Assembly (NCBI GenBank): GCA_900617105.1 | Contig: UYFQ01000254.1 | Coordinates: 1-63,895 of the forward strand | From: Hydrurus foetidus | Taxonomy: Eukaryota | Length of the DNA: 63,895 nucleotides | Direction of reading: 5' to 3' | Shown: positions 7,512 through 53,891 of the stretch, piece by piece | Layout of the letters: each line of letters opens with the position of its first letter | Numbering within the stretch: the first letter of the stretch is position 1 | The notes under the pieces: generated by a model | Told to the model about the DNA's origin: nothing | Databases searched by the model: none | The model's input: only the letters and a program-made list of their open reading frames with translations | Made by a program: the position numbers and the translations under genes

Positions 7512-7935
7512 TTAAACCATCTTTGAAATTGTACTTCTTGTTACGCCTCTTGTCTTCACTTTTGAGATCGTGGAACTGGTAGTGCCGTAATGTTTCGCAC
7601 ATGCAATGTTGTTCGCCACGTCTCTCCTGATACGCTCTTGTGCCAGGTATTCCTCGTCTTCACGATCCCGTTGCTCTCTCTCACTTATGGTCAAGGAATC
7701 TCTTGGTGGGTATGGATTCACGGTTTTGATAGTATTGAGATATGGCTGTATGAACTCTAGTTCCCCCTCTGTGTCTTCTTCTTCGTCTTTATTTCGTCTG
7801 TCTTCTTTCTCTCTCTGTTCCTTCTCCCTAATCTCCTTTACTATTCTCTCTCTACTCACAGTTATCGGAATCCTTTTCTCTTTCTGGTTCCTCTACGATA
7901 AAGTCATTGGGATCATAGTACTCAGAGTCCTGGGT
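7512..7935 (-). pseudogene. Charged C-terminal fragment of a convergent ORF, probably the second gene of the Harbinger element
   Basis: E/K/R-rich reading frame convergent on the transposase, cut off at the Gypsy gag junction. Confidence 0.4.
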
Positions 7936-10146
7936 TAGAACCACAATCCCGAAAAATCTAAGCCAAAAGACAAGAGATCCCTTAAGATCAAGCCCCTCGC
8001 CAAGAAAAAGTCCCCAAAGGCAGGTCCCAAACCTGCCCCAAAGGACAAAAAGGTGAAAACCAAAGCCGATGCTAAATCCGGCAAAACACACCGCGCGCAA
8101 AAGGCGGAAAACTCGGAAGAGGATTCCCCCCCACAACGCAAAGCGGGTTTGCAAACCTCCATCATCAACATGAAGGAGGCGTACTACCTCACTCGAGATA
8201 AACTCCTCGACGACGCTGATAAAGCAGCAAGAGCGTTTCACGAACAAGCATACCGCCCCGGTATGTTAACCAGTTGGGAAATGCTAATCGAAATGGATGC
8301 CATCCAAACGATCCGCGACCAGTTGCTTCGATGCAAAAGCGAAACAGGTTACAACACCAAAACTTGTCTCGTCTGGCCAACGGTCGACGGCAAAACGCTA
8401 ACGTTAAAAAAGATTGCAAATGATCTTAAAAAGATCTTTTACAAAAACAAACGTACGTCTTCCCATTTCGACTTCGAAATGAAGTTAAAAATTGCAAATT
8501 CCGCATCAGCTGGAAAGATCCTTCCGTTGAAGACAGAGCTCTCTCTGAGTTCCGTGACATCCTTCTCGGATTCTGGACGTCATACGATGCTATCGATGCC
8601 GACATGCAGAATGACATCTGTAAGGCCTTCTACAAGAAGCTGCCAAAGAACAACAAGTTCACAGACAATTTCATGGCAAAAACAAAACGTAAGACGAAAA
8701 AGACCGGGAAGGACACCATCTTCAAAATGCTCACGCGTCTTGTCGTCATGCTGGGCGAAGCACGCCAGATGATCAAAGACGCGGAGGACATGGGAGGTCT
8801 CGACTTCGTCTTCGAGTCGAAGCTCACACCAACCGACCAAGACGACGCCTCACCGCGACAACCACTCGGCTAACGCCTACAAGGCAATCTCAAAACGTCA
8901 GGTGGACCCTGAGTCGTCCGGCCTCAGCCGGGCGACCAACTTCTGTCACACCTGTGGCAAAAAGGAACACAACCGTTACGAATGCCAAAACCACATGAAC
9001 CCTCACTGCAACTGTAGCCACCGCGCTTGGTCGCAGTCTGAGGGGGCATAGGACTTCAAACGGATTGGTCACGAACACTTCGTACCAAATGTGTACATCA
9101 ACGGGGAACTTACCCGAGACACCAACAATCTCGGGGCGGCTACCTACGTGTATCCAACTGACGACGTTAAGAATGACTTCTCCCCTCCAGGAAGAGCCCA
9201 AGACGACCGTCCGACCAAGAAACAAAAGCTGGCCAACAACAACAAGTGCAATAAGTACAAGAGCAACCAGACTCAACCCGATCGGGACAACGATCGTTCC
9301 AACACGAACAAATTGAGCTCCAACTACAAGGGCAAAAGTAAGTCACAACTTGCTAACCCAATTACGGACATAATCGAGTACGCTCGAGAATTACCAACAA
9401 TGAAACAACTTCTATCAGCTTTATTAACTGAAAACATAGATGATTTCTTACAAGTTCACATATCTCTACCACAGATCTGATCCCCAACTTCAAACCAAGT
9501 CGCGACCGACCTGACGATCGCAGAGACAACTCGCACCAGGCGGAGAGCAAGGAGGCGGACAGACAGAAGTCCACTTCTTCCTCCTCCTCCAACCAATACG
9601 TGCCAAAATAGAGGCATGGAAGCCTTGGCCCAAATCGACACTGGATGTCAAGTCGGGGACGTCATAAACGGCAGAGTCCTTCGGGGCCTCCGCGGCGAAA
9701 CCCACTTGAGAAATTCCGACTCACCCATGTGGATGTGTTCTGGCTTAAATAATCAATGTGTAGAATCTACAAATGTGCTTGATAATGTTGTATCATTTAA
9801 TAAAAGCGATTTAAGACACACTTTTAGTCTTCCTGTCCGAATGGCTCCGGAGTCAAAAGTCGACCTAATCTTAGGATTACAGACTATAAAAAATTTAAAT
9901 TTAGTAAAAATCATACCAGAGTTCTTTCAGAACCTAGATAAAATAACGCCTAGTGCGATACCGGCTTCACCGCTGAAGAAACAAAGGGTGTCGTTTTCGG
10001 CTGAGGACGATGCACTAGTGCCCTTCACGGTACTTATAGACACCGAACTACCACCCGAGGTACTATCAGCCAAATCAGTTTCAGCAGACAAAATCCAAAC
10101 GGAAATTCCTTTACCATTACTAACGGAAAGAGAAATTGTCCAACAG

Positions 10147-10362
10147 TGTGGTCTCACTAGGACTCTGGGCTGGAACGGAGGGCTGCTGGAACGCGGGCGA
10201 AGGAAAGGGGGTGATGGGGCTAGTGCTATGGATAGCAAAGTGGTTAGCTTACAGATAAACACAGCAGGTATCATGGCAATGAATCGTGTGGATCGGATCG
10301 TCCTCGATCCGATCCGAACGTACGCCTGTACCCGTACCGCCCGTACGGGTGTACGGGTCACA
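10147..10362 (-). repeat. 3' LTR of Gypsy B
   Basis: Direct repeat of 17359-17574; PPT adjacent. Confidence 0.96.
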
Positions 10363-10645: not shown

Positions 10646-13600
10646 TTATCGGTAGTTCGCGATGAATTCGCGTGGTATTAAATGTTTAAGGTTCTTTTTT
10701 ATCAAAAATTCATGTACTTTTTGCGACTTGCGCATATGTGTCCACGGTTCCCAGGTGTTGTGTTCCTGAGTATAGTTGAGCCATTTCACATGAAATGTGA
10801 GTGTTTTGTAAGCTCGAATGTTACCTTTCATTTCTAAAATATCTTCGATGAAGAATTCTAGGTAGTCCCTACGAGCTATGTCGGTTGGGTCTACATGAGT
10901 TGGGTCGAATTGGAAAGGTTTTAATTGTGTCATGTGGTACACTTTTTCTTTATGTGTTATTAGATCGAGTAAAGTATACTCTGCGAAGTTGTGACTGACA
11001 ACTCGCATCGGACCACGCCACAGTGTGTGCATGCGTGTTTCTGGTGTTGTTCGCTGTTGCACAAGTACATATGTATCGACTCCAAATTGTGTGATGTTGG
11101 GTGATTGTTGTGCATTGTGGATGTCGTCTGATTCTTTGAGTAAACGTGCAGTGATTTGGATAAGTTCATCCTGCAACGTCAACATTGTATCTGTTGATTT
11201 CGATAGTGAATGGGATTCCAAATCGATTTCGTCTCGCGGGAGTAGGATATTGGCATCGAGGTCGATAGCGTTGCCATAGATGAGTTGTGCAGGTGATACT
11301 TTCATACGGTCGTTTACAGTTGAATTTAGTATTCTTTGTACGAATGGTAGTATTTCCGCGTAATTTTCCGTTGTTGCGCGTTCGTACGCGTATGCGGTGA
11401 TGTGACGATTTATTTCTTTGTTGATACGTTCGACGATAGCGTTTTCTTCTGAACAGTATGGTAATATTTTGTTGTGGGTTGTACCAACAATTTTCACGAA
11501 CTCATCGATAATGTGAGCGACGAAGTGTGGGCCATTATCTGATCGAAGTATAGATGGTGTGCCGTATCGGCCCACGTGTTCTATGAGTGCTTTGCACGCT
11601 GCTTTAGCTGTTGCATCAGGTGTAGCATAGAGTTCGACAAATCTCGAAAATGTGTCGATCATAACAAGGATGTATCCTTTATCTGGGAATGGTCCGATGA
11701 AGTCAATATTAAGACATTCCATTGGTTTGTATGTTGATGTCGTGTACCTATATGCATTGATGGGATATTTCATAGCCGACATCTTTTGGCAACAAGGACA
11801 ATTTTTAATGAATGTTTTTACTGCGTCACGCATTCCCAACCATATGTTATTTGATTTTTTTAAGTTACGCAGAGTGCGTTGAACACCACCGTGTCCGACT
11901 GTAGTGTTATGACACTTTGCAATTATGTTATATTGCTCTGTCGTCATCGGTTTGTGTGTCAGAATTGCAGCTATTATTCCTGAGGTAGCATTCTGTTTTT
12001 ACATAGGCGAGACATTGCATCGGCAATTTCGTTTTGTTTCCCAGGGATATATCCTATCGTATATTCTAATTCTTGCAGGGCCATACGCCATCTGATGACC
12101 ATTTCGTTCTTGTCTTTTTCAAGGAACGTAAGATTTTTGTGGTCTGTTAGAATAGTGAATTTACGATCTCGTAGCAGTGCGTCGAGATAAGTACAGCAGT
12201 AGTATAGCGCGAAGGCTTCTTTATGTATTACTGACCATTTCAGTTGAGTCTTGGTAAGAGACTTGCTTACGAGAGCGACAAGTTGTTTTTCCCCGTCGAC
12301 TTCTTGATAGAAATAGCCGCCTATACCGTAATCCGAAGCATCGGTCATTAGGGTTATGGGCGCTGTATCGTGTATAAAATATAATAAAGGACTCTGTGCA
12401 ATTAGATCTTTGATCTTTTGGAAAGAGTTCGCAGCGTCATCTGTCCAGATAAGCAATGATTGCTTTTTCGCTGCGTGATCGATCATTTTATGCAGTGGTG
12501 CAACCACGTTAGAGTGATTTGGTACATGATCCCGAAAATAGTTGGTGAGACCAAGAAACGATCTTAGTTCGGTCGTCTTTCTTGGCATAGGAAAGTCGGT
12601 CACACCTCTTATTTTTTTTAGAGCTCATAGTTATACCATCTTTAGATATTTGTTTACCAACATATTCAACTAATTTTACATTTAGTTTAAGCTTTGCAGC
12701 TTTTAGTGATATGTTTTTTTCTTCGAGACGTTGAAACAATATTTCTAAACGTTCGCAGAACTCCTCAAATCCATTACCATAAACGATTATATCGTCGAGG
12801 TATACTTCACAAATGTGATATATTAGTCCCAGAAGGACTATTGTGGCCATCATTTCTTGGAAATATGAGGGAGCTCTTTTGGGTCCGAATGGTAGTCGGG
12901 TAAAGTGGTAAATACCCATAAAGGTGATGAACGCGGTGTACACGCGTGTACTCAGAGTCAGTGGGGCTTGGTGATAACCTGCAGTGAGGTCGATTACACC
13001 GAATGTGTCTGCCTTTTGTGAACCTAATCTCGCTAACATTTGTCTAATATTAGGAATTGGCCAGCTTGCTGACTCTGTTGCATCGTTGAGGTGACGGTAG
13101 TCAATACAGAATCGGTATGAACCGTCTGGCTTAGACGCAAGTGTAACTTGTGAGTAGTATGATGCCTCTGATTTGACTATTATACCCTGTTCTAGCATAG
13201 TATCAACTTGTTTACGGATTTCAATTTGTTTCCGTATTGACGTTGGTCGGGGTGCTACACGATTCCTGAATACTTTCCATTCTGGATCCCGTACGGGTAG
13301 TCCAAACGGTGGAATACGTGCAGGTTCCGGCCCGAGTTTGTTGTTGAAAAGCTTAATGTGTTTGACACAGATTGCTCTTATTTTTACTATTTGGTCAGGG
13401 GTACCATCGATGTGTATTAAATCGATGAGGTACATTTTATCCTCTGTTGGATTGTCTTGGAAAGGAGCGAAGGTATCCTTCGACTTGTAGTCAATCTCTT
13501 CGGGTCCGAAGGGTTGAACCTCCGGGAGTTCTTCACGCTCCCGGAGTAGAGCAGCAACTAGACCACGCGTTTGAGCTGGTGCCTTGGATGAGGGAGTTGG

Positions 13601-16600
13601 AGTAGCTAATTCCGGACTCCTGTCGGTTGTTAAACCTAAATCACTGTGTCGGGGAGGTGACAACAAAACTGCTGCCTCGACCGTAGAGTGCACAGTGAAC
13701 TCATCTAAAACAAGTTGAGCCGCTGCCGCAGCTGAACCTGTGGGACACCCGCATGATGCAGTGCATGTCTTGCTTGTACAAGCACCTCGAGCCACCAGGT
13801 CGTCTTGCCATCGACTGTCTGCGTCTGAGGGTTTTATCCCCTCCTGGCTAGTTATAACCAGAGGTATGTTGTGTGTGTTTTTATTTTGTTGCGTTGTGTC
13901 AGTGTAGGTGACGACATGTTCAGGTTCTGCATATAGCAGCTGTACTGGAATAGTTGTAAGAACGTCCGTTCTCGACTTTTGTAATTGTTTTGACGTCGGA
14001 TGTGGAAGAAGTTCTGTTCCGATTTGATCTACATTTTGGAAGAATTCTGGAAGAATTTTTACCAGGTTGAGATCTTTGATTGTTTTTAATCCGAGGATTA
14101 AATCGACTTTGGAGTCTTCCGCAATTCGGACAGGAAGAGCGAAAGTGTATTTGAGAAAATCTTTTTTAAATGATACAACAATATCAAGCACATGTGTAGA
14201 TTCAATACATTGATTATTTAGACCGGAACACATCCATAAGGGAGTGTCCGTTGTGCGCAAGTGGGGTTCGCCTTGCAGGCCCCGAAGGACTCTACGGTTG
14301 ACTACGTCCCCAACTTGGCATCCGGTGTCGAGTTGTGCGAGAGCGGCCAAGTCGTTACTTGGGCTCGTATTTGTTGGAGGAGGAGGATTTCCCGGAGGTG
14401 TTGTTGTCGTCCCGGCGGTTGTCTTTGTCTTTCGCCGAGTCGCGCGACTCTTCCTTGCGGGAGTTGTCACGGTCGCGATCGTTAGCGCGGTGGTTGGGAC
14501 GGTAACCGGGGATCGGATCTGTGGTAGAGATATTGTTACTTGTAAGTAATCGTCTATGTTTTCAGGTAATATCGCTGATAGTAGTTGTGTCATGTTTGGA
14601 ATTTTCTGACTGTCGTCAGAATGCAATGTATGCGCGTCAGTCAATGACAACTTACTTTTGCCTTTGTATCCGAACTCTTGGCCGGTTTTGTTGTTGACGT
14701 TTCCGCGGCTACGGTTTGCGTCACGATCGGTGTTGCGGTCGTTGGCGTTGTTGTTGTTGCGTTCGTTATCGCGATCGTTGTTGGTACGATCCGACTTCGC
14801 ATTGTTGTTGTTGTTGTTGTTGTTTTTGTTATTGTTGTGTTTGTTTTTGTTGTTGTTGTTTTGGGGTTGTTTCTCTGGACCCTTCCGTGGGATAGATGTA
14901 TGTGGACGCTCCATGATTGATGGTAGTTTTCGTCATTACCCCGTTGAGGTAGACGTTTGGCACGAAGTGAGGGTGGCCGATTCGGCGGAAATCGGCTGAC
15001 TCCGGTGACTGTGACCACGTGGTGTGTGTGTTGTTACAGTGTGTGTTCATGAAGAGTGTACACGTGTAACGATTGTGGCCGACCACCCCACACGTGTGGC
15101 ATGTGTTGGTGGAGCGACTGAGGCCGTTGTGTTCGTAGTCTTGTGAACGTGAGAACATGCTTTTGTATTGGGACTGCGGCACGTACTCGTTGGGTGGTGT
15201 GTCGGCCTGTTCCCTTAGGGTGAGTTTTGTTTTGAAGTGGTATAACAATCCACCCATGTTTTGTGCGTCCTCAACTGTTCGGCGGGATTTCTGTAAACAG
15301 ATGTTGAGGCGCTGAATCATGTCGGGGATGTTATCCTTCTTTTTCCCTTTGATGTATTTTTTTGTTTGGGCCATGAAGTTGTCGGTGAATTTGTTGTTGA
15401 TGGGTAGCTTCTTGTAGAAGATTTTACACATGTCATCATGTGTTGTTGAGTCAATCAGAGAATATTCGCTGTAGTGTCCCAAGATGATGTCTCGGAACTG
15501 CGCGATTGAGGCGTCCTCGAGGGATTCGTCTTGCCAGCAAAATTCGAATTGGAAATTTTTTAAAGATAAATCCAATTCGAATGTTGTCAGCGTACGTTTG
15601 TTATCGTAGTAGATTTTTTTAAGATCTTCTGCGATTTCCTGAAGGGTGAGTGTCCCCGAGGGGAGTTCGGGCCAGGCTTTACACTCAGCTCTGGTGTAAC
15701 CGGTTTCCTTCATGTGTTTGACTAACCGATCTTGGATCGATAGTCTCGCCTCTTTCTCAATGACTTCGTCCCATTTGGATTTAAATCCCGGGCGATATGC
15801 CTGTTGGTAGAAAAGGCGTGCTGCCTTATCCATTCCACCAAACAGGGCTTTTCGGTCCAGGAAGAAAACCTCTCTCATATTAATGAGTGAGGTGGATATT
15901 TCTCGGGCTTCCTTTTGGGGGTCGCGGGACTCGAAGACGAGATCTGTGTCATCTTGTTTGCGTTTTCGAATAGGTTTTTCAGCTGTCGGTTTAGACGCGA
16001 CTGATGTTACCTTTGCTTTTGCTGATGATGTAGATGAGGATGATGATGATTTGTCTTGTTTGGTAGCCCTTGCGGGCTTCTTCTTCGCCAGAGGCTTGAT
16101 AGCCAATGGTTTAGATTTTTAGACTTGACGACAGGGAGTTCGACAGCGTCTGAGTTTGACTTGTCGTCGTCGTTGTCGTCTTCCTCGTTGTCGTCGTTGT
16201 CTTCATCATCATCCTCGCCGTTGTCGTCGGCGTCGTCATTGGTGACGTCGTCGTCGACGTCGTCAGTGTCGCTGTTGTCGTCATCGTCCTCGTCCTCCTC
16301 ATCATCGTCGTCGTCGTCGTCCTCCTCAGACGAGGAGTTGTCGTTCTTTTCCTCCTTCTCCTCTTGCGACTGTTTAACGTCTTGGTTGTTGTTGTCGTCA
16401 TCAAGAGGAGTTGGTGGGGTGACTCGACTGACTGATAGGGGCGTTGGTTTGTGTCGACGGATGCGACGAGGTCCCTCATTTCTTCCTCGTCAGCGCCAAC
16501 TTTGTCTGCCCATTCTTGCAGCTTAGCAATGCGTTCGCGTTCTGCGATGCGCATTTTATTTGCTTCGCGCTTGGTTATCTTGCCGCGAGCGGCTTCGTCT

Positions 16601-16806
16601 TGAAGACGTGTTGGGGTATCTCCGACTCGGATGGCTTCCTTAGCCAGAGCCGCAGTGGATTTTTCGACATTGCGGAGGCGTTCCCGCTCCGCTGCTGCGT
16701 GTTTTTGCCTCGCAGTTTGCGGAAGCTGGCGCTGGTCGGATGGGTTTGAACCCTCAGAGATAGCATCGCTAGAGCTCCGTTTGTTGGCATTTTTGCCTTT
16801 GGCCAT
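10646..16806 (-). pseudogene. Gypsy B gag-pol polyprotein, broken by about five frameshifts
   Basis: CHTCGVVGHNRYTC knuckle, AQLDTG protease, RFCIDYR/YLDD RT, TDASD RNase H, H-H-CPCC and DDE integrase, chromodomain FHVKWLNY..NTWEP. Confidence 0.93.
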
Positions 16807-17358: not shown

Positions 17359-17574
17359 TGTGGTCTCACTAGGACTCTGGGCTGGAACGGAGGGCTGCTG
17401 GAACGCGGGCGAAGGAAAGGGGGTGATGGGGCTGGTGCTATGGATAGCAAAGTGGTTAGCTTACAGATAAACACAGCAGGTATCATGGCAATGAATCGTG
17501 TGGATCAGATCGTCCTCGATCCGATCCGAACGTACGCCTGTACCCGTACCGCCCGTACGGGTGTACGGGTCACA
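17359..17574 (-). repeat. 5' LTR of Gypsy B
   Basis: Direct repeat of 10147-10362; followed on the minus strand by ATACCGGTATTTGG. Confidence 0.96.
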
Positions 17575-21222: not shown

Positions 21223-21609
21223 GCGGGGATCGAATTTCCAATCTCAAATTCTTCCGAAACTATGGTAGCGGCGTTTGAATTTCTAATCTCGAACTCTTCC
21301 GAAAATATCTTAGCGGCCTTCAGATTTGCAATCTTCAGGACTACAGTTGATACCACGGTGTCGCAGATCTCTGATAAATTGGAGAGAAACTTCATCATGC
21401 TGACAGCTACAATATGCTTGATCATCTACGATGTGAACTGCTGGTAGCTGGTGAATCGCTCAGCAATAATTCTTAATTCTAAATTCTAATCCCCGAATCG
21501 GATAAAAAATTTGAAAAAAATGCTGGTTCTTGAGGCTGGCTTCCAGTGCTGGATTCCTTCCCCGCCGGAACCTTGTACCAGGAACGTGCATATAACGCGC
21601 GTGTGTACT

Positions 21610-22520
21610 CAAGCATATAAAACTGATAATTGTACAATTAATTCTTAACGGAAATCATTTTACAATTAATAATTGCAATTAATAAATCTGAGAAACCAAT
21701 TAATAGATATTGTACACTTAATTGTTGCGGATAATAGATAGAATTAATTGCAGTAATAATTGCTACAGTCAGTTTATTGGTCCAATCAATTGCAATTAAT
21801 TGCAGTATTTATTGTCCCAATTTTTTTTAGGGCGCCATGATCAACGCTCTCACCTGGTCTCGAAGTCTTCGACGATCTCCGATCGTAATCTCCAAAACAT
21901 TGTTTTAGATGAACACTACTGTACTTTACTGCAGTTGTTTTGAACAAGTAATATCAATTGACACTCATTGAATCATCCAATGACACATCATTCATGTGAA
22001 AGATCACACAGAATGGAGACAAACACAGCTATCAGTCGTAATAATACGATTATTATTATATGTTTTACACTTATTTCCATTGACATTTATTTACCTACAC
22101 ACATATTCTCACTGTACAAAAGCTAATAGCTTTTGTAATACATCGAGTTCATCGCCCCCACTTCATAACCATGATCATAATACATATACGTAGCAGTTTT
22201 ATATCACGTTTGATAGTAATGAAACATTTGCCTGAGCTACGGCCAAGTTAGTCAGGAACTTAGCTCGGCCTGGGCAAGTTGGGTAGGCAAGCTCGGCCAC
22301 CACCCCTGCTCAATTATGATAACCCAATTAATTGAAAACAATTAATTGCTAACTATTTAATAACAATTAACTGTATATTACTTACCAATTAATTGGATAT
22401 TACTAAACAATTAATTGGATATGAACATACAATTCATTCTACAGTAATTGGCAGTTTTCAAGACAACAATTGGTCTTTCCGAACAATTAATGATTGCAAT
22501 TGTTGGCGATTATTTATTTG
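21610..22520 (+). mobile_element. hAT-type non-autonomous element, copy 1 (right end missing)
   Basis: Starts CAAGCATATAAAA; CAATTAATTG-rich subtermini; homologous to 32619-33688. Confidence 0.82.
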
Positions 22521-31572: not shown

Positions 31573-32618
31573 ACTACTGAGTAGTTATGTCGAAATCCAC
31601 TTGAGTCTTTCCTCCCCTCTGAAGTCCTGGGTCTTCTCGAAATGGTAAGTCCTTCTCCAGAACTGCTGAGCGTGTAGAATAAAACCAAATTGAACCGAAT
31701 AGTGAGTTATTATGCACACTAATTTGCTCGATCAAATAAGTCAAATCAGATTACTCGAGTAATCGGCAACAATCGGAATATCATAAATAAAAACTGTACC
31801 CACATCATGCAAATAGAATTCACTATTGAAACAACTCTGATGGTATCATCCCCTGCACGGTTGCGGAGAATTCGCCTAATAGATGAAAGTTTAATAGAAT
31901 TAAATTGGCCCAGTGCTTCAGCACAAGCTCAAAATTTATAGGCAACTTCGAGCAGCTTCAAATCAGGTCATAAAAGGATTCCATGTTCACTCAAAACCAT
32001 TCGGAAGTCGTATGAGCTTGTTCTCAAATCATCCGTCGCACAAAAGTGTACGCAGGAACTGATCCGTCGCAGAATACGCAGGAACTGATCTAACTTATCT
32101 TATTTGCTTCATGAAGAAATAGGTGCCCAATTTTGAAGAACAAATTAAGAGGCATAGATGGTGAAAGCGGTTGATCTAACCTTCTCAGCCCGATCTGCGA
32201 CCAGTTTCCTCTTGTTCTTTCTATCGGAACCCTTACCTCAGACGGGCGGCACTTGAATCGATGGATGAGAGCATTTGCCAAGAGAAATAAAATCAATTAA
32301 ATTTTGAAGCAATATTCTTCATGAAAAAATGGCCGGCAAAGAGGAACAATGGCAACGGTCAGAGACACCTGTTAAGCTAGGGGCAGCTGACAAAATCATG
32401 ACACTCGGAAGGTCAGCAAACTCAAAATTAGTTGTGCTTGGCTGGCAGCGATTATCATTGCTGTGGGAATTCATATGACAACGGTGACTGTGCTGGTGAC
32501 AACAATTACTGGTGTACTATATCTTGGCCTGGCTTGTTGGCCCAGTTCGTTGGCCTGGTTAACTCTCCCCCGGACCAAGGGGGTAGGTATTTTTTTTTGA
32601 AGGATATCATGCCGGCTT

Positions 32619-33688
32619 CAAGCATATAAAACTGATAGTTGTACAATTAATTGTTAATGGAAATAACTTTACAATTAATAATTGCAATTAATAAATCTGA
32701 GAAACCAATTGATAGATACTGTGCAATTAATTGTTGAAGATAATTAATTGCAGTAATAACTACTATAGTCAATTAGTTGCAATTAAAAAAAAATTAGAGC
32801 AATAAATACTGCAATTAATTGCAATTAATTGCAGTATTTATTGCTCCAGATTATTATCAGGGCGCCATGGTCAACGCTCTCTCCACGTCTCGAAGTCCTC
32901 AACCATCTCCAATCGTAATCTCCAATGGCTATATTTTAACGGTGTTTTAGATGAATACTACTGTACTTTACTGCAGTTGTTTTGAACCAGTAATATCATT
33001 TGACACTCATTGAATCATCCCATGACACATCATTCATGTGAAAGATCACATAAAATAGAGACAAACACAGCTATAAGTCGTAATAATACGATTATTATTA
33101 TATGTTTTACACTCATTTCCATTAACATTTACCTACACACACGTACTCACTGTATTATGGCTTTATAAAGCTAATAGCTTTTGTAATACATCGAGTTCAT
33201 CGCCCCCACTTCATAACCATGATCATAATACATATACGTAGCAATTTCATATCACGTTTGATAGTAATGAAACATTTGCCTGAGCTACTGCGCGGCGGTG
33301 GCCGAGTTAGTCAGGAACTTAGCTCGGCCTGGGCGAGTTGGGTAGGCAAGCTCGGCCACCACCCCTGCTCAATTATGATAACCCAATTAATTGAAAACAA
33401 TTAATTGCTAACTATTTAATATCAATTGATTGAATGTTACCTACCACCTACCAACTAATTGGATATTACTAAGCAATTAATTGGATATGAACATACAATT
33501 AATTGTACAATAATTGTCAGTTTTCAAGACAGTAATTGGTGTTTTCCAACAATTAACAATTGCAGTTATTGGCAATTAATTTTTAATTGGCATTCGGCTG
33601 CCCAGCCCAACCAATTAATAATTGCTAATGAATAATTGCAATTAATTGGCAATTAAATTAAAGTACAATTATTGCTTTTATATGCTTG
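32619..33688 (+). mobile_element. hAT-type non-autonomous element, copy 2 (complete)
   Basis: TIR CAAGCATATAAAA / TTTTATATGCTTG; 8-bp TSD GCCGGCTT/GTCGGCTT. Confidence 0.88.
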
Positions 33689-38150: not shown

Positions 38151-39471
38151 CAACCATATAAAAGCAATAATTGTACTTTAAATTAATTGTCAATTAATTG
38201 CAATTATTTATCAGCAATTATTAATTGTTTGAGCTGGGCCATCGAATTCCAATTAACAATTAATTGCCAATAATTGCAATTATTAATTGTTCGAAAAGAC
38301 CAATTATTGTCTTGAAAACTGACAATTATTGTACAATTAATTGCATGTTCATATCCAATTAATTGTTTAATAATGTCCAATTAATTGGTAGGTAACATCC
38401 AATCAATTGTTATTAAATAACTAGCAATTCACTATTTTTGATTATTTAGCAACTAAATGGGTTATCAGAATTGAGCAGGGTCGGTGGCCGAGCTTGCCTA
38501 CCCAACTCGCCCAGGCCAAGCTAAGTTCTTGACTACCTCGGCCACGGCCTAGCAGTAGCCCAGCCAAATGTTTAGTTACTATCAATCATGATATGAAACT
38601 GCTATGTATATGTATTATGAACATGGTTATGAAGTGGGGTCAATGAACTCGATGTATTACGAAAGTTATTAACTTTATAAAGCCATTATACAGTGAGTAT
38701 GTGTGTGTAGGTAAGAGTTAATGGAAATAAGTGTAAAACATATAATAATAATCGTATTATTACGACTAATAGCTGCATTTGGCTCCATTTGGTGTGATCT
38801 ATCGCACCAATGATGTGTCATGGGATGATTCGATAAGTGCGAAATGATATTACTGGTTCAAAACAACTGATTTCGTTCTTCCAAGCTTTTGGCTATTGGC
38901 CGTGACCGAGTTGGCTGTGACAAGCTTGGCCCGGCCACCAGCTCTACAATCTACAATCTACAATTGAATGGTCAGAGTTCAAACTGCAACAGGGCAATTT
39001 ATAAGTATTCTATCACTCTATTGCTGCATCGATATAAATGACACATACCAGAAGTCACAGCATCGACTGACAGCCAGTCACGTAAATGTCTTTCAACAAG
39101 CTTATTGTATATTGTAGCTCACTTCTTCGAGAAAGGAGAGAATTTTGTTGAACACCTCAAGAAGAAGAACATCTACAAATGTCTTTGCGCAGAAATCTGC
39201 GGCAGAGAGTGCGTCAGCAAGCACAATTCCTTCTCAGTTATCGCTAACAGTGGTTACACAAACCTGAGGAATCACATTAAAGAATGCATACCAGATTGGG
39301 AGTCCGTTTATAGTAATCGTGGCGTTGGGAAGTGTGACATCAGAAATCATATTGTACAATTAATTGTACAATATCTATTAATTGGTTTCTCAGATTTATT
39401 AATTGCAATTATTAATTGTAGAATTATTTCCGTCAACAATTAATTGTACAATTATCAGTTTTATATGCTTG
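38151..39471 (-). mobile_element. hAT-type non-autonomous element, copy 3 (inverted), with internal BED-finger-like fragment
   Basis: TIRs CAACCATATAAAA / TTTTATATGCTTG; perfect 8-bp TSD AGTATCAG. Confidence 0.9.
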
Positions 39472-40253
39472 AGTATCAGATACCAGATATACCAGATAGG
39501 TAAAATTGAAAGTTAGATGCCCATGATTTATTCTCTCGAGGAAGTCCTTAGCTATGGCGGATGCACCACAGGTTATATCATTCACTTTATCTGCGTCAAT
39601 CCTAATCGTACTACCGTAGGAAATAAACCTGTGTTCAGGTGATCCTAATGAATCCGTATATAATTTCCAATACTCCCAACGATGCTGCACAAGATAGCCC
39701 ACATAAGTACAATAGATATCATTAAACAATCGTGAATAAATTGATATGTTTCGTGTCTTCGTATGGCATCAAGGAGAAATTCTGTTTTTCTGATTTCTTT
39801 TGGTTTTGACAATCGTATAGTACCATCACTTTGGCCCTTCGCATCGTAGGGTCATGACCAACAATTTCTGTCCCACAATGGCGATTATAAGCAACAAATT
39901 TTCAGATTTAATTTTTGACTGCTTAGAATTTAAAATTTCAAGTTTCGATGTTGCTGCTTAACAATCAGCATATTAAATACTTACATTGCGCGCTAAATGA
40001 GGTCGTAAGTTCTAGTGTCGCGAAAATTCAACATGAGTCGATTTCATTACGTCAGCGTACGGAGTGAGTAATAATCAAAAACAAACAGATATTCGTTTTC
40101 ACATGCTGGAAAGTGTGAAAAGTGGAGAAAAATATTCTCACAAAAAAAGTGCGTTGTATGCTGATATTTAAAATTCAAAATTCATGATACAGCTTTCTCA
40201 TGTGCTTGTATTTGATGGGATTCAAGATAATATGACGGTATTTGAGAAACTCT

Positions 40254-43200
40254 TCAGCCACTATTTCTCATGCCGTTGGCAATACCATTAATGGTGATTA
40301 GAAGAGCATCCCTCAAAATCTTTTCTTCTGCTTCATTGACGTCTTTGTGCTCATGTCTGAGTCTCTTGAGTAGCTCCGCTTGAATAACGTTGAGAGGATC
40401 AACATACGGATTTCGCACTGCCATACTTTTTAAGAGAGTTTGATTATTCTCTTGTAGCACAGTGTGTCCTGAAATGGCGAGAACTGTTTTACTCGTAGTT
40501 TCCAACTGTGCTCTTAATTCCCTACCAAGCGCCAAGCACTCCTCATCATGCACCAACTGCAAATCATAATTTGCAGCAATATCCGTCTCACTTTTCGCCA
40601 GAATCATTTCAACTAAATCTATGATGGTGCGGAACCACGGCCAGTCCTGATACATCTCCTTCAGTATCACAGGATGAGATTCCAGTTCTTGCTGTAGAGC
40701 AATACCAACACCAAGCCATGCGGGAAGATTCAGTCTGGTCTGGGTCCAAGCAAACACCCATGGGATGGCACGTAGACTTTCTACGCCCCCTTTAGGGTTT
40801 CTCTTCGCTGGCCGGGACCCTACGTTAAGCCCAGATAACTCCAATTCCGGAGTTGCGCTTCGGAAGTACGGAACAAAGCGTGGCTCTTCCCGCACTACTT
40901 TGCGATAAGCAGCGCATGATACAGTGGAGAGGCGTTCCATGACATCCCTCCACTCTTTCTTTGGCTCTGGACGAGATGCAAATCGCTCTGCTAATACGCC
41001 TGCAGTGAATAGATCGAGAGTCTTCTCTGCCATACCTTCTTGACCCAAATTCTGAGTAATCATCTCTCCCTGCAAGAGAGCGTGTGACGGTGATAAATGA
41101 TTCTGGAAAAAAATGAACCATGGGAACTGGTATCATACAGCGAGCAACAGACATACCTGCTCAGTCACTCTGAATCTTCCGTTGATAGTCTGGGGTGGAT
41201 GGGCTAGAATGGCGTCATACACCGCAGGGTTGCCCCCTCTCCCCACCGTGCCGCCTTTACCGTGAAAGAAGGTAACCTCTATACCGTGTCTTACGGCACA
41301 CGCGGCCATAACCTTCTGTGCATTGTACTGAGCCCAAGATGCTGCGAGTCTGCCTGCATCTTTGGCTGAATCACTGTACCCTACCATGATCTCTTGTTTG
41401 CCGTGGATGCGTCTCGTGTACGCCTCAGTTGTAAAGAGAGTTTCTACAGCGCCTGGGGAGTTGTTAAGATCATCGAGTGTCTCAAATAAGGGCACAACTC
41501 GAAGGCAGGGCGTAACGCCTGCATCCTGCTGTAGTAGAAGCACAGCCATGACATCTGATGCTCTCTGGCACTGAGATATCACGTACGCGCCCAATGAGCC
41601 TTGTTCTAGACTAGCTGCTAATTCGAATGTTCTTAACGTATCTAGGACAGTCATGGAGAAACCTAGCGAAGAAAGGGATCGTCCCCGGGGCAGAAGGGGT
41701 CGATTTGATGTCAGCTCGGTGGACAGCCAAGCGATTCTTTCTGTTTCACTCCAGTCATCGTAGTTACCAAGTCCAAGAAAAGATGTGATCGCTGTGAGAG
41801 CCTCTGTGTGTCTGGTGGACTCCTGTCTGATATCTAGTGGCATCAGTGCAAGTCCAAATGCCGCTACTCTACGAATAGTATCAGCTAGTGTCCCACTAGC
41901 AGCTGATCCCATGCCTGTCTCCATGAGAGACCTGTGCATCATCATCAGTGGATCCATCAAATCAGAGTCGTGGATCAGAGGTTGAGCGCCGCCACTCTGA
42001 CCAACCCATTTCTCTCCTTTAATGCCTGCAGCGGACCATTCTAATGTGGCATCTAGACGTGCTTCAAGGCCCTTCATCAGCACTCTGTACGGCTCTCTGT
42101 TTCCGTCTGCTGCTGCTATCAACTCAGCTGAAGCGTGTCTGAATGACAGATTATTCTTCAACTCGTTTATATCCGTCCTGAACAAGTTGGCAGCTGTCCA
42201 GCGGGACATCATTGACACTTCACGAGTAATCTCTGGGGTAACATTCGGGTTGCCGTCTCTGTCGCCACCCATCCATGAAGTGATCTTGATGGGAGTTATG
42301 TTCAATGGTAGGGACTTCCCGAACTCTTGTTGAAGTGCGTCATCAAGTTTGCGCAAATAGTTTGGAAGAGAGTACCACAGCACATTCTCCACGATAGCTA
42401 ATCCGCCTCTAGCTTCATCGAGAGGAGTTGGCTTGCTGCGCATGAGCGCGTCAGAGTTCCACATTGAAAGCACTTCTGCCTTCAGCTGCTTAGACAATTG
42501 ACGTCTCTCGTACTCCAGAAGATCAGGGCGATCTTGCTGCTCAAGGGCTTCTTTGATTCTTTGATGCTTGCGCAGCATGGTTCTTCTGTTCACCTCAGTG
42601 GGATGTGCTGAAGAAGAAAGTTGCAAGTTAAGTATTTGATAAGGTTGGGACAATCATAGATGAGCAAACGCCGTGTTCATCTTCCTAAAGTGAGCATATC
42701 AAGTTCACCTGTTAGAACTATCTCCACGGATTGTTTGCTTAGTGCATCGAGAACTTCATCAGCAGTCATTGCATGCGTTGAAACCAGTCTTCGGATTGTG
42801 CCAAGTGCAGAATCATGTTTGGTCGATAGAGCAGCAGTCGCTTGGGTTTCTAGCATATATTCTCGTAATCTTCTCATGCGATGATGATTTTCTGCCGAAT
42901 TTGATAGCGAAAGGAAATGACTGAAGGCTCGTCCAACGTTACTGATCTTCTTCGCGTCGTAGCTTTTCACCTCCTCGACCATTTCGTTCAATTTACCCTT
43001 ATCACCACCAGGCAATCGCCACTAAATTGCAAAGGTTACAAATGTGAATTTCGATTAATGCTCTGAGTATATTCATTGAACATGTTAGAAAATGTGCACG
43101 AACCTCGCGTCCTAGTTGACGGAGTTTTTCAACAGCTTCGAAGACATCACTGTCCTCTGCTTTGATAGCGTCACCAAGAGTAATTCCAAGAAACTTTACG

Positions 43201-43298
43201 TCATTGCGAAGCTTTTGATTGCTGGAAGACGCTGCTTCTGCGAAACCCCTTCTTGAATTCAGCTGAACAACGCTGCTGCTGATAATTCTCCGTAGCAT
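40254..43298 (-). CDS. PEPC: Phosphoenolpyruvate carboxylase, multi-exon, with mitochondrial-type presequence
   Basis: VLT|AHPTE, SWMGGDRDGNP, QEIMVGYSDSAKDAG, FHGKGGTVGRGG, RVTEQ|GE, LRAIPWVFAWTQ, C-terminal MRNSG; GT-AG introns. Confidence 0.96.
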
Positions 43299-43733
43299 TT
43301 TTGACTTTTACCACTGGATGCTACAAAATTTGATCAGAACAACCGTATGATTACCAGCCTTTCAGATTGACGGCTGCACGATTGAGAAGCCTTGTCCGAG
43401 AGCGCTAATTTCTCGCTGGTGTACGTGGGTCACAATTATAAGGAAACGTTGCGAGGCAAAGCAAGTTCAATTGCAGGAGGACACACAGCTTGCAAATGCA
43501 CATTCCGTAGTCGGAATCCACCGGTCTAGGGTCTTTGTTGAAATTTGCCGGAAAAGAAATTCTTGGTCCATAACACCTTTTCAGTCTTTCACCCACAACT
43601 ATTTTCAATGATCGAATTATTGACTTCTGAATAGCGCAAATTGTAGACCATGTAAAGATTAGTGGTTTGGCCGAAGAAAATTGAATACAAAAATCTATTG
43701 ATGATGATAGAGCACTAAACGTCAGTGATGATA

Positions 43734-44527: not shown

Positions 44528-45213
44528 TCGATGGAGCTTATTTATACGGTAGAATTTGCTGTCAAGGTGGTTGGCAATGGCATGAACAATGGCCGTTGCA
44601 TCTCAGGCGACAGTTTGCATTTCGTTCGAGAGTACGACAATGCGCACGGTGGGTGATCATACGCGAGAAATTACTAACCTACCTGAATATTATGTAGACG
44701 GTCACTAAAAATCACTTATTTTTTTGTATAGGACCGTTCGCCGTGAGAGTTGAGAATTTGGACGAGCCTGGAATAACCATCGGCAGAATTAGGAGACACT
44801 CATCAGATGATGAGGCATGTATTTCTGCTTTGTTAGAGTACATAGATCCTAATGTGTACACTGTTGCGTACGTAACATTAAGTGATTCTGATAAGTCATA
44901 CAAATCATCAATGATTGGTTTTGATGTTAGCATCAAAGTAGGCTGTAAACTTGAATGTAATTATGATAGTCTCCTACAATTCTTGTCTGGTTACAATATT
45001 TCTGAGATGACCTTCGCGTAGTTGCACATTTTTATTACTTATTAGTTAATATTCATAACATCACGGGAAATTGCTTACTGGTTTTAAATACTAGAATTTG
45101 TTGCAGTTAAGCATGAATTGTTAAGCAGTGTGCATGGTGCTTTTTAAATCTTTTTTTACAATTGACTTTGTAGCAATACCAGTTTGCGCAAGTAGTGCAC
45201 CCCAGCCAACCAT

Positions 45214-45640
45214 TGTGACCCGCACACCCGTACGGGCTGTACGGGTACAGGCGTACGTTCGGACCGGATCGAGGACGATCCGATCCATCCGATTCATTGC
45301 CATGATACCTGCTGTGTTTACCTGTAAGCTAACCACATTGTTTCCATAGCAAAAGCTCTCCCAGCTTCTTTTCCCTTGCTCCCGCTCCCAGCCGTCCCGC
45401 TCCCAGTGCCTAGATCCTGGCAAGGCCACAATACCGGTATTTGGAACCAGCTAGTGATCTCTAAGATCCAAGTTGACCAAACGTCCCAACCAAAAATCCC
45501 GCAACGACCGTAAAACAGTCTGAGCAACAAGTTGAGTAACTCTCCAAGAGTGAAAACCACCCAAAACGATACTACAAAGGTCTCGTCAACACGACAGCCT
45601 CTGAATCGTAGTCGTTCGCGACCTCAAATATTGGCGATTT
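45214..45640 (+). mobile_element. Gypsy C: 5' LTR (45214-45430) plus leader, same family as A/B, no coding region retained
   Basis: TGTGACCCG...GGCCACA then ATACCGGTATTTGG; leader aligns with the B leader (CTACAAAGG..CGACAGCCTCTGAA). Confidence 0.88.
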
Positions 45641-45927
45641 AGAGCTCGTTCGGTAACTCCTGATTCTGCTGTCTTTCTCGAATCGACCCACGAATTCGCT
45701 GTCTTTTCACAAGGCACTGTCCTCGACAAGACAGCGGAATATTCTGACCAGAAAAAAACACTGCATTGAGAGAAAAGCACTGCTTCGTAGATACGACTCC
45801 GGACTCGTATCTTTTTCGCTGTATTTTCTTCTTTCTGCTGTCTTCAGCTGACGCTCTCCAAAAAGCAAATTGCACACCATTCGAATACTTCTGCTCACAT
45901 CTCTCACAAATACATAGCATAACAAGC

Positions 45928-46854
45928 ATGGCAGAACGAACGAAATGGACAGAAAGGAGCCGCGCGTGTTTTATCAAAGCCATGATCTCCGAGATAGATG
46001 CAGGAGTCTTCGTTGACTCTGGATTCAAGAAAGCATCGTGGCAGAAAATTGTTGCAGCCCTCAACGAAAACTACGAAAACAAAAGGGAGACATCCGAGCC
46101 CAAGTTTACGTATACGAAGCAACAGTGCCAATCTTATTACTCCAAAATCAAAAGTCAGTGGTCAGTCTACGATATGCTGATGAACAATAGTGGATTCGGT
46201 AGAGATCCTGACACAGGAGGCCCGACTGCCTGCGACTCTGTCTGGAACGCCGTCATCGCTGCTCACAAAGATGCAGTGAATTACAGGCACAAGGTACTCT
46301 CACTGTACGAGGAATGCACCTACATCTTTACTGGGAAAAGCGCAACGGGGAAGTATGCGATATCTTCGGTGTTCACGACACCTGACGTTCCTTTCAAAGC
46401 GGAGAAGAAAAGGAATCTCGAGGACAGCTGGACTGACGATGAGCCGCAGAACTCAATCGACATAGAGGTTGGAGGAACGCAATCGTCCCACAAGAGAAGC
46501 TCGACATTTGAAGATTGTGGAAGCTCCGTCGAAGACTCCGTCACAGCCGTCAAGAAACCGGTCAAACCTCTGCCATCAAAGAACGGGTACAAGAAAAACA
46601 GAGCGAGCCCCCAAGATGAAGTTTTAAAACTTCTGAATGTCATCGCTAAAAACCAGGACAAATTAGTGAGTCATCACACCGCGCCGAGTGATTTAGCACA
46701 GGCAATAGCTCTCTTCAAAGCTGAACACTCGGGTGGCCTGGATGCCGGCCAGAGATCCAAGTTCCAGAAGTACTTGAAGGAAAATTGCGGTATCTTTATC
46801 CTACAGGATGAGGAAGAAAGGAACGAAAGTATTAGAGAGTGCTTAGATGCTTAG
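45928..46854 (+). CDS. Myb/SANT-like DNA-binding protein of the Harbinger element
   Basis: MAERTKWT...SGFKKASW...YTKQQCQS...K.QW...NSGFGRDP...VW pattern; first ATG at 45928. Confidence 0.88.
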   Translation: MAERTKWTERSRACFIKAMISEIDAGVFVDSGFKKASWQKIVAALNENYENKRETSEPKFTYTKQQCQSYYSKIKSQWSVYDMLMNNSGFGRDPDTGGPTACDSVWNAVIAAHKDAVNYRHKVLSLYEECTYIFTGKSATGKYAISSVFTTPDVPFKAEKKRNLEDSWTDDEPQNSIDIEVGGTQSSHKRSSTFEDCGSSVEDSVTAVKKPVKPLPSKNGYKKNRASPQDEVLKLLNVIAKNQDKLVSHHTAPSDLAQAIALFKAEHSGGLDAGQRSKFQKYLKENCGIFILQDEEERNESIRECLDA

Positions 46855-46999
46855 TATTGTTAATACAGCTCACTTTTCTCTAATCTTAATAATCTCTTGA
46901 TCAAGAATACCACCATACTTTGACATTAAAAACAAGCTGTGAAATTGAGTTGATGTCGATACAGCGTAATCTGAATCTTTATTTACGTCACGACAAAAT

Positions 47000-48204
47000 T
47001 CACTCATCATCTTCATCTTCACCCTCAGATCCATATCCATTCTCTTGTATGTAAGCTACGTAGTCATTCCACATAGCAGTCGAAATTCCATCACGCCATT
47101 GCTTCAACTCATTGCCATTACCAAGAACTTCTGCTACCTCATCAACATCGTCCTCATCATCATTAGCATTATTGATTTCAACATCAGGTATATCAAATTC
47201 GTCATCGTACAGCTGGTGAGAACGAATAAAGTTATGCAACATCATAGCACAAAGCACAAGATCGCATTGGAAAGGAAATGCATAGGGGCTCATTTCAACT
47301 AAAATGGGGAATCTCTTTTTCACTACACCAAATATTCTTTCAATTACATTCCTTAATGAAGAATGTCTCAGATTATATAACTCTTTCGCATTCTGTGGCC
47401 TTCTATTACCTTCAGCCCACTCCCTTAAATGATACCGCACCCCCCTGTACGGAGTCAGGACTTTCCATGATAAGGCATATCCTGCATCACCCAAGTAGAA
47501 CTTCCCTGGCAGAATAGGTAAGCCCTTCATTCTGGCATCATCTAGGACTCTGCTGTCGTGGGCAGATCCTTCCCAACCAGCGAGAATATAGCTGAACAAC
47601 ATGTCAAAATTTGCAACCGCCAGAACATTCTGACTCATTGTATTTTTCCTGTTCCGAAAGGGTTTTCTCTCATCTGGCGGAACAACTGCGTGGATGTGAG
47701 TTCCATCTAAAGCACCGATACAATTATCGAAGTAAGGCGAGAACTTGCGTGAGTTCGATATTTTCGACTGGATAGGATCTAGTACTGTAGGTGGAACAAT
47801 CAGATAATGTTTGCACATTTTCATGACTGTGGCAACTTGGTGAACTACGAGTGAAATTGTAGAACCAGAATGTTGCCACCTTTCATTGACTGATCTATTT
47901 GTGTGACCCACAAGAACCAAAATAAAGATGAGAAGTTTCTCTCCAGTTGACATATACTTGGAATCCCTGAATCCTCCACGACTCTCCAAAAGTAACAGCA
48001 GTTCATCAAATGTGTTTCTGTCCATTCGCGTGACATTGTGGAATCGGACTGTACTTTGGGTCTCAAGAAGTTCCTGCACAGTTGTCCCGTCAATATTGAA
48101 TCATGCTGCGCTATTGGCTCTTTAGCTGCTCGTACGACATTGCTTTTCAGAATTAATGCCACTAGAGAAACGGTATCTACGCCAAGCAACCCAACTTCGT
48201 CCAT
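47000..48204 (-). CDS. Harbinger/HARBI1-like DDE transposase (frameshift near 48082)
   Basis: HDSILTGQ|VQELL, CIGALDGTHI, GWEGSAHDS, YLGDAGY, RNVIERIFG..K.RF, LHNF. Confidence 0.92.
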
Positions 48205-48548: not shown

Positions 48549-48951
48549 TGTTGGGATATGCGTAGACTAGGAATCCCTTTGGGGATAATATCATGAACGA
48601 TATCCAGTCCGGATAGTTGTAGCTTAGGCATACGTTTTATGATTCCTTGTAGACCGGTTGATACTATACACCAACCCGCGGTCACATCAGGAATGAAATG
48701 TTGGAGTGATGAATCACACCAAGTAGCATACTAGCAGTTAGTATACAGCTGATGAAGTGGATGTTTTGACATGCTAACCACTTCTTATTAAAAGAGACTA
48801 TATGACATCACGTCATTATACCTACACTAGTTGACTTTTCTGCTGCTCTGGCTAGGCTTGCATTTCACAAGGTGTATTCTCAACGAATCACTAGCAACCT
48901 ACCAGTTCAGTACCGGGATCAGTTATCCCTAAAGGAACGGTTTTACCAAGA
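48549..48951 (+). repeat. Copia 5' LTR (TGTTGG...CCAAGA)
   Basis: Direct repeat of 54071-54473. Confidence 0.97.
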
Positions 48952-48978
48952 TAATAAGAAGCCTTTAAAGACTTTATC

Positions 48979-51900: not shown

Positions 51901-53891
51901 ACCCATTTCCGCCGTCAATTCCCACCGCACCAATCGGTTTTGAATCCCCACCGACACAATCGCCAATGGAGATTCGGGGTGAGACTGATACGGTTCCAGA
52001 CACAGAAAACCTACATGAAACTTCTGGCGAAATATCGGAACCAACGGAGCCCGTTGAAGAGATTCCGGAGGAGAACGCTTTTGATAGTGCACCGGTGAAC
52101 GTACGTAAGTACACACCTCGACCCATAGAACCAAGGGAAAAGTCATCCAGACTGAAGAAACCAATCGACCGACTTAACTTAACAGCGGAAGAAGTATCAA
52201 CTCAAGCACAAGAAATCGACAATCCGCATGTTTGGTCGATGATGTCAGTTACTCGGGGACTGAAGCTCTTCCCGGAAAAGACTGCATTCGCCATCGAGTC
52301 AGAGGTCAAATCGCTCCTCGCAAAGGACACATTCTCAGGGGTGCACATGTCACAACTGACACAACCACAGCGAAACAAGATCCTGCGTTCGATCATGAAC
52401 GTCACGGAGAAGTTCCTACCCACACTAAACTCGGAGGGTAACCGAGAGATCGACAAGGTCAAGGCCAGGTTCTGTGTCGATGGGCGCGCGCAAGTGCGAA
52501 CCGACTACAAGCCCGATGAGATCGAATCACCCACTGCTTCCATGGCCGCAATATTCACCGTAGCGCAACTGGCGGCAGCGGAGAAACGGTTTGTTATGGT
52601 GGGTGATGTGGGGTCCGCGTACCTCAACGCGAAAATGCCGCTGGATAAACCGGATAAAATCCTGCACATGATGATAACTAAAGATGTGGCGGATGAAATC
52701 GTACGACAAGACAAGTCATTTGCTGCGTACCGAATGCACAATGGAAGCATTCTGGTACGTCTGAACAAGGCACTATATGGCTGTATCGAGTCTGCCAAAC
52801 TGTGGTATGAGGAAATAGCCGGAACCCTACGGTCCAACGGTTTCACGGCCAACCCGCGCGACCTTTGCGTCTTTAACAAGAGCATCAAAGGAAAGCAATT
52901 CACGATTGTTGTCTACGTCGACGACTTAAAGATGACGTGTGTTGACAAGGACGCTGTCCTCGCCATGGAACAGATCCTGCTAAAAGTTTACGGCCAATTC
53001 AGGACAACACAGGGGCCTATCGTATCGTACCTAGGCCTGACCTGGGACTACAGTGAAACAGGATACGTGAAAGTTTCACAAGCAGGGATGATCCAAGACA
53101 TTGTTGCTGCAAGAGAGAAGACTCACAAAGACCGCGGAACCAAACCCGCTGGAATTCCGCACTCACCAGGTGCTCCTCACCTGTTTGATCGAACCCCTGA
53201 CAGTGAGCTGTTGAGTGCCAAGGATGCAGAAATATATCACACCGACACCGCAACCATTGCATGGACATGCTCGCGTGCACATCCGAGCCTCACAACAGTG
53301 GTGGGCGAACTCTCAAAACGAGTGAAAGCACCATCCTACGAGGATGACAAGAAGCTCGACAGGGTCATCAGCTATGCGAAGTACGTACGTGACGTACCCC
53401 TACGACTCAAAGCTGACCTCCCACCAAGAGTCACGGTATCAATTGATGCTGCATTTGCGAATCGCGACAACATGAAATCAACCTCAGGAATGTGCGTCAC
53501 ATTAGGGGTGGGATTTTTCATCACGAGTTCCAAGGTCCAGAAGCTGAATTCCAAGTCGAGCACGGAGGCTGAGATCATCGCGGTGTCCGACGGGATGAAC
53601 ATCCCATTATGGCTCGCAGACTTCATCCGCCTTCAAGGATACGATCCACAACCAGTGCGATTGGAGCAGGATAACCAATCCTGTATCACACTACTCACGA
53701 AAGGTCGGTCTACCGCAGAGACCACCAGGTTCATCGAGATCCGGAAATTCTGGATCTCGGACTATATCAAGAACGGTGCAGTGGACATTGTCTATGTTCC
53801 CACGGCGGAAATGACTTCCGACTACTTTACAAAACCGTTGCAAGGTGCGATTTTCGACAAAATGTTCAAGAAAATAATGGGACAAAAGTAA
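48979..53891 (+). CDS. Copia gag-pol polyprotein with a single frame break near 49912
   Basis: CFNCGKFGHRKSEC knuckle, FDTGA protease, HCD/TSDNE/VER integrase, KARFCVDG/YVDD RT, IDA/SSTEAE/SDYFTKPL RNase H. Confidence 0.94.

Follow-up and report, generated by a model that had tools for sequence, protein, structure and literature searches.

A predicted optional intron at the Gag-protease junction of a chromodomain Gypsy retrotransposon family in Hydrurus foetidus

A Gypsy retrotransposon family with a chromodomain, found in a 63,895-nt stretch of Hydrurus foetidus DNA (the window), probably uses optional splicing resembling that of BARE1 to make a Gag-only mRNA. Judged from two DNA copies and from homologous proteins, the GT-AG segment at the centre of this reading is real and conserved in the family. 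The family encodes Gag-Pol as one reading frame, which would carry a short, optionally spliced GT-AG intron at the Gag-protease junction. Retention of the intron would allow in-frame reading into the protease, reverse transcriptase (RT), RNase H and integrase, and the unspliced RNA would also serve as the genome. The host spliceosome may remove the segment from part of the transcripts; the spliced message would then pass into the −1 frame, in which approximately 33–60 residues would be added that continue the D/N/R/K/S-rich Gag tail, up to a conserved Y-x-P-K-stop located 26 nt before the catalytic Asp codon. Splicing would set the Gag:Pol ratio and supply the excess of Gag.

The segment lies in an element, referred to as B, whose two LTRs carry 2 differences across 216 nt and which is flanked by a 4-bp target duplication, ACAG (Table 1). 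As to a primer-binding site, a TGG-containing stretch follows the 5′ LTR, a self-priming match of at least 8 nt being absent. The order Gag-protease-RT-RNase H-integrase was found in B as well as in the homologs P0010, P0021 and P0031, using Pfam and, for the protease, the DTG motif and ESM look-alikes; the chromodomain at B's integrase C-terminus (PF00385, E = 3.4e-08) is present in these three proteins too. The protease core of B has retropepsin look-alikes in the ESM Atlas at 0.93 and a weak Pfam Asp_protease match (E = 0.096), and Ty3 Pol is the best match among PDB sequences. Between protease and RT, a Cys-rich motif, C..K.CT.SCGC (window 13860–13700, minus strand), is conserved in B, in its sister element A and in relatives. 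Protein searches returned P0001, P0002 and P0009 as homologs of the gag product of B. The gag frame of B is broken by frameshifts near 16450, 16050 and 14870, the last of which leads to a premature stop 175 nt upstream of the predicted donor, and pol contains frameshifts near 12520 and 11990. As assembled, B is broken upstream of the splice-like segment and would make neither Gag nor Gag-Pol, a defect overlooked in a preliminary description of this DNA. Since this copy is damaged, the question of splicing concerns the family and not copy B.

Table 1. Positions in the window of elements B and A and of the features bearing on the predicted optional intron.
Feature	Position	Strand	Remarks
Element B	17574-10147	minus	Ty3/Gypsy retrotransposon, inserted into sister element A
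5′ LTR of B	17359..17574	minus	TG...CA, 216 nt
3′ LTR of B	10147..10362	minus	after purine tract 10381-10366
gag region of B	14656..16806	minus	ATG 16806; CCHC knuckle from 15101; Asn/Asp/Arg-rich tail
Premature gag-frame stop in B	14829..14831	minus	after frameshift near 14870; by comparison with P0001, 89% identical
Predicted donor GTAAGT	14650..14655	minus	Pol codons S-K; homologs [S/R][K/E][S/L/F]
Predicted optional intron	14519..14655	minus	137 nt, in frame in Gag-Pol
Candidate branch point CTTAC	14542..14546	minus	about 25 nt upstream of AG; identical in A (9447-9451); putative role
Predicted acceptor TCTCTACCACAG	14519..14530	minus	identical in A
Dual-coding segment	14355..14518	minus	D/N/R/K/S-rich predicted Gag tail (−1 frame); T/P/A/R/K-rich linker (Pol frame)
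Stop TAA of shifted (predicted Gag-only) frame	14355..14357	minus	TAG at equal offset in A
Retropepsin protease core of B	14021..14354	minus	DTG 14329-14321
RT, RNase H, integrase, chromodomain of B	10646..13500	minus	Pfam RVT_1, RT_RNaseH, Integrase_H2C2, rve, Chromo
Sister element A	~7940-10146, 17575 onward to 21200	plus	3′ LTR begins 21006
Homologous GTAAGT...CCACAG segment of A	9338..9474	plus	137 nt, donor at 9338
Dual-coding segment of A	9475..9611	plus	shifted frame ends TAG 9609-9611; protease DTG 9637-9645

The preliminary description had placed a donor at 14655 and an acceptor at 14519 of the minus strand, and both positions, as well as the length of 137 nt, proved exact. The two reading frames run as it had described them: the unspliced frame continues through a linker rich in T, P, A, R and K into the AQLDTG of the protease (Asp codon at 14329), and the spliced frame is open to the TAA at 14357–14355. 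On the 7.4-kb sense strand of B, GT[AG]AGT occurs a single time, at the predicted donor, and the acceptor ends with CCACAG at 14519. Eight introns of host genes in the window, called by eye from gene homology, are all GT-AG introns of 71–133 nt with a GC content of 0.32–0.44 and donors such as GTAAGT, GTATGT and GTACGT; the 137-nt segments of A and B (GC 0.36–0.38) fall at the upper end of the host intron range. Downstream of the acceptor, D, N, R and K together make up 0.54 of the second frame of B, compared to 0.69 of the upstream Gag tail and 0.19 of the Pol frame. Two other arguments were rejected. The open shifted frame of 68 codons is exceeded by stop-free stretches of 81 and 78 codons elsewhere in that frame, and the intron length modulo 3 was discarded, the 3n+2 length following from the conserved phases of donor and acceptor.

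Sister element A provided a natural replicate. This element lacks the 5′ LTR and the start of gag and contains several stops and frame shifts. Its protease is 75% identical to that of B, and silent differences between the two copies affect 38–53% of the conserved codons in protease, RT, RNase H and integrase. A and B have in common the donor, the 137-nt length, the last 15 bases of the intron, a CTTAC located approximately 25 nt upstream of its AG, and a shifted-frame stop. Of two occurrences of GT[AG]AGT in A, one is at the homologous donor site. An in-frame TGA of A (9478–9480) has another base in nearly all contig depth of sequencing runs X1, X2 and X4, and looks private to this copy. Within the final 20 codons of the intron, 13 of the 16 conserved residues have identical codons in A and B, compared to 0.47–0.62 elsewhere, and RT too has runs of 9–10 identical codons; the two frames of the dual-coding segment, taken in full, show equal A/B identity (22/45 and 22/46). 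The suppression of synonymous change anticipated in the preliminary description is modest at the acceptor in this pair of copies. Directly upstream of truncated A lies a short open stretch rich in E, R, K and D (window 7560–7920, minus strand).

DNA-level verification covers A and B; homologs were judged by whether their protein residues are compatible with the codons that the sites impose. We examined 14 homologs, of which P0001 stops short of the acceptor and P0003 begins only beyond the donor. Left out were P0027, whose frame shifts within the linker, P0029 (a cluster mate of P0006), P0002 and P0033 (which end earlier) and fragments. All 12 ORFs that include donor and acceptor fit the two signals, with K-S-[K/E] and [IL][SC]L[PLS]Q, and represent about 8 lineages, with protease cores 59–99% identical; the first homolog query (8 proteins and cluster mates) contained the intron, which biases this set toward members that have it. 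The implied intron lengths in these 12 homologs are 128 nt (5), 134 nt (1) and 137 nt (6), and a stop-compatible dipeptide is present at equal offset in 13 of 13 homologs reaching the protease. P0021, P0031 and P0032 are single uninterrupted Gag-Pol ORFs of 2019–2086 aa in which the segment is retained. Donor, acceptor and stop, whose loss from relatives the preliminary description had set against its proposal, are kept in the DNA of A and are compatible with every homologous ORF that spans the junction.

The main evidence is how these sites vary: the swaps are non-conservative in Pol, yet they leave both the splice signal and the second frame intact. At the donor, the Pol residue K or E corresponds to GTAAG or GTGAG, leaving the splice signal unchanged, and in P0069 the replacement of S by R alters only the base before GT, with donor and intron motif present. 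Across the alignment, GT[AG]AG was compatible with all rows at 4 of 5658 column/phase combinations, the donor included (9 rows; P0007 is gapped, and P0031 and P0032 matched through a neighbouring R-K), these rows being kin, so that the column counts are backgrounds and not p-values. At the stop site, the first two bases for the Pol residues N, R, D and E complete TAA, TAG or TGA. Two codons before it, the Pol residues P, Q, L and R all fit one second-frame residue, and, of 10 rows, 9 fit the K and 8 the Y of the second frame. Stop-compatible columns with four or more residues number 4 of 518 on the same related rows, and 10 rows are reached only at the predicted stop site.

We weighed these patterns against a reading without splicing, in which the motifs would reflect protein constraints (protease strand, cleavage site, basic linker) and the excess of Gag would come from Pol turnover, as in Tf1 and Ty5. 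The 3′ half of the predicted intron encodes a hydrophobic motif, LLSAI..YLQV.ISLPQ, that is itself conserved as protein, so that conservation of the acceptor is partly explained without splicing. The segment is richer in T and poorer in GC than the flanking exons (T 0.25–0.27 vs 0.07–0.14; GC 0.36–0.38 vs 0.45–0.59), as is characteristic of BARE1/EVD-type introns, but this carries little weight because the protease gene has the composition of the intron. Summed depth of the divergent contigs of run X1 reaches 24,000–77,000 on 14510–14570 compared to about 2,000 on the flanks, with the same shape in X3 and X8, but contig depth, which gives no copy number, is high at the start of the protease too. 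Single-ORF elements with a Pol-turnover logic do exist, namely Ty5 and Tf1 (passages of PMC7175516). Protein constraint does not, however, predict the K/E and S/R swaps at the donor, the N/R/D/E and P/Q/L/R swaps that preserve the second-frame P-K-stop, the coincidence of the sole GT[AG]AGT of 7.4 kb with the donor, or a second frame having the composition of a Gag tail, and we regard this reading as unlikely.

The residue patterns at the head and at the tail of the dual-coding segment show constraint on the second frame. The linker, which the preliminary description had explained as a dual-coding segment, behaves as one, and two proteins read the predicted tail: P0034 is frameshifted late in the linker and ends with KYNPK at the predicted second-frame stop, and P0050, in which a small deletion precedes the AG, follows the second frame over its full length and ends with QYVPK at the predicted stop. 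In the Pol frame of the linker, [R/H]ATRR is conserved (window 14450–14425, minus strand), the R/H swap being silent in the second frame (S-R-D-S).

A second query consisting of Gag only, without the junction, gave 59 hits, of which 55 were new and 19 had tails long enough to examine; P0034, P0050 and P0069 came from this independent query. No spliced-junction protein was present among these 19 of the 55 new matches. In the distant P0044 and P0068 (26–29% Gag identity), the residues S-E or R-E are compatible with the donor, and both proteins have a hydrophobic motif that closes with Q as well as a T/P/A-rich linker; in P0068, a stop-compatible dipeptide is absent at equal offset. Among the matches to the Gag-only query, P0072 and P0059 end without such a motif, and the remaining examined ones end before the junction or are shifted. 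Two further protein searches, both weak, returned 2 proteins each: one had a length window of 235–751 aa, too short for the roughly 770 aa of a complete spliced Gag, and the other scored 7989 candidates and missed its own seeds. Relatives' DNA was sought in viral, metagenome and genome contigs, with no confirmed locus. The C-terminus of P0002 resembles the second-frame tail without a donor motif and could be a contig end or a misassembly.

A real second frame could also be entered by a programmed −1 ribosomal frameshift instead of splicing: this frame is −1 relative to Pol, and in B the shifted-frame stop has upstream of it an in-phase heptamer, G GGA AAT, at 14393. However, the heptamer is absent from A, the homolog residues at its position differ, and a divergent contig of X1 differs from it at two bases. 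Conservation of the second frame begins at the AG, approximately 120 nt upstream of the heptamer, and the donor would be left unexplained. With a slippery heptamer in B only, −1 frameshifting was rejected as the family mechanism, and entry into the second frame by this route appears extremely unlikely. Splicing could alternatively have another outcome, either through use of an upstream in-frame AG (81, 102 or 117 nt) or because the spliced RNA is a by-product of decay or silencing rather than the main Gag message. Three such in-frame AGs are found in both A and B, and with about 4 kb of 3′ UTR behind its stop, the message would be a target for decay unless it is polyadenylated early, as in EVD (passages of PMC5580714). 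Yet the AG at 14519 is the first one more than a few bases beyond the candidate branch point common to A and B, and the conserved head and tail of the second frame argue for a translated product, making such an outcome very unlikely in our view.

The 40 variants listed for the DNA-like runs leave the GT, the AG, the stop and 14518–14572 untouched, differences near contig ends being unlisted. Shortly after the AG, the two dominant variants (14517 and 14505) alter Pol and are silent in the second frame, and the 13 variants of the dual segment split evenly, 6 being silent in the second frame and 5 in Pol. Among the joints listed for X1, X2 and X4 (DNA-like, of a kind not on record) and for X20 (guessed to be RNA, with no cover at the site), none is at the predicted sites. 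In X19, guessed to be RNA and possibly DNA, a contig identical to 14300–14478 stops 40 nt before it would reach the acceptor, and a second, divergent contig crosses the acceptor unspliced at a depth of 6.7. These joints and contigs speak neither for nor against splicing.

In retropepsins, a hydrophobic strand precedes a Gly-containing turn located about 8 residues before the catalytic Asp. A Gly about 8 residues before the catalytic Asp is present in 9 of 10 rows of our alignment, and the residues preceding it are the dual-coded P/T/N/S stretch. Since the Gly turn is preceded by this stretch and the hydrophobic motif is in the intron, the switch may sit inside the protease, and the intron-encoded motif could be its first β strand. 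Two AlphaFold2 models made for this idea had a mean pLDDT of about 35, Foldseek with the second model gave no match, nothing came out of a PDB sequence search, and no N-terminal protease was matched by Pfam. A broader proposal, possible if rather doubtful, is that the whole algal chromodomain Gypsy clade, out to P0044 and P0068, has a splice switch inside the protease gene, in which the retained intron would encode the first β strand and the next exon both a selected Gag tail and a protease loop of 33–60 residues, with an origin independent of the Copia cases.

Comparison with known systems draws on passages of the papers cited here. BARE1, a Ty1/copia element of barley, carries an intron of 104 nt where gag ends, which is alternatively spliced, and its Gag-only mRNA was shown in RNA (PMC3735527). 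It resembles the B family in having a single Gag-Pol ORF and, as predicted for that family, a short intron at the gag end and a frame shift to a stop, and its nearly full-length spliced RNA gives Gag only (PMC3735527). BARE1 is a Copia element with a stop three residues after Gag, whereas the B family is Gypsy and would add a conserved tail of 33–60 residues overlapping the Pol linker; splicing was demonstrated in RNA for the former and is deduced from sequence for the latter. By analogy, the B family would work like BARE1, yet with the domain order of Gypsy and not that of Copia. The preliminary description named copia and EVD as precedents and missed BARE1, the closest one. EVADE (EVD), an Arabidopsis Ty1/copia element, makes its shGAG by splicing centred on the protease, with a frameshift and a new Gag stop, in a manner conserved across its clade (PMC5580714). 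The B family would share the splice-made frameshift, the new Gag stop and the conservation across a clade, but the EVD intron takes out the protease entirely and is linked to early termination (PMC5580714). In Drosophila copia, the spliced RNA that supplies excess Gag arises by removal of an intron of about 3 kb comprising nearly all of pol (cited in PMC5580714 and PMC3735527).

Within Ty3/Gypsy, Arabidopsis elements are described in the passages of PMC5580714 as having no such conserved splicing. Transcripts of the plant elements Ogre and CRR are partly spliced, as proposed for the B family (PMC6317226, PMC3735527), but the logic of Ogre splicing is opposite to that proposed for the B family (PMC6317226) and CRR splicing removes rt (PMC3735527). 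The Tf1/sushi, Tcn1 and Tosmo/Tj1 chromoviruses have the same protease-RT-RNase H-integrase-chromodomain order as B, with a CCHC Gag in many; they rely on −1 frameshifting, on readthrough of a stop or on a single ORF, splicing being unlisted in the passages of the source (10.1101/2022.12.06.519325). A wrongly annotated intron is on record for Tcn1, a caution for intron calls made from sequence only (10.1101/2022.12.06.519325). In the mainly open-access literature searched, no Gypsy element was found with a Gag-only mRNA from a short intron, and its passages treat splice-made Gag as a Copia strategy. For single-ORF Gypsy elements, Pol turnover as the source of excess Gag is largely an assumption and not a demonstrated fact. 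With a short conserved intron and an overlapping Gag tail under selection, splice-made Gag would reach Ty3/Gypsy and a protist host, and an [S/R][K/E] donor, a Q acceptor and then a T/P/A/R-rich linker are suggested as a signature for screening other single-ORF families.

Besides many transposons, the window contains host genes with introns, coding for PEP carboxylase, threonine synthase and a RACK1-like WD40 protein; presequence-like N-termini occur among them and suggest that the host is probably a stramenopile alga. The PEP carboxylase gene (40254–43300, minus strand) has three short introns and a presequence-like N-terminal stretch. A Copia element (48549–54473, plus strand) has 403-nt LTRs that are 100% identical; its gag and knuckle-pol frames are offset near 49905 at a purine run, which is either an assembly indel or a frameshift site. 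The LTR and leader of a third B-like element (45213–45608, plus strand) are cut off by a Harbinger-type transposon with Myb/SANT and DDE genes (45748–48100). An unassigned repeat of about 1 kb is present in three or more copies that are 83–96% identical (21606–22518, 32618–33688 and 38151–39475). Finally, an ORF at 59086–59760 (plus strand), whose start resembles a signal peptide and which has a weak hit to the CRM domain, continues into a CCHC knuckle stretch; it probably represents a piece of a transposon fused to a host gene.
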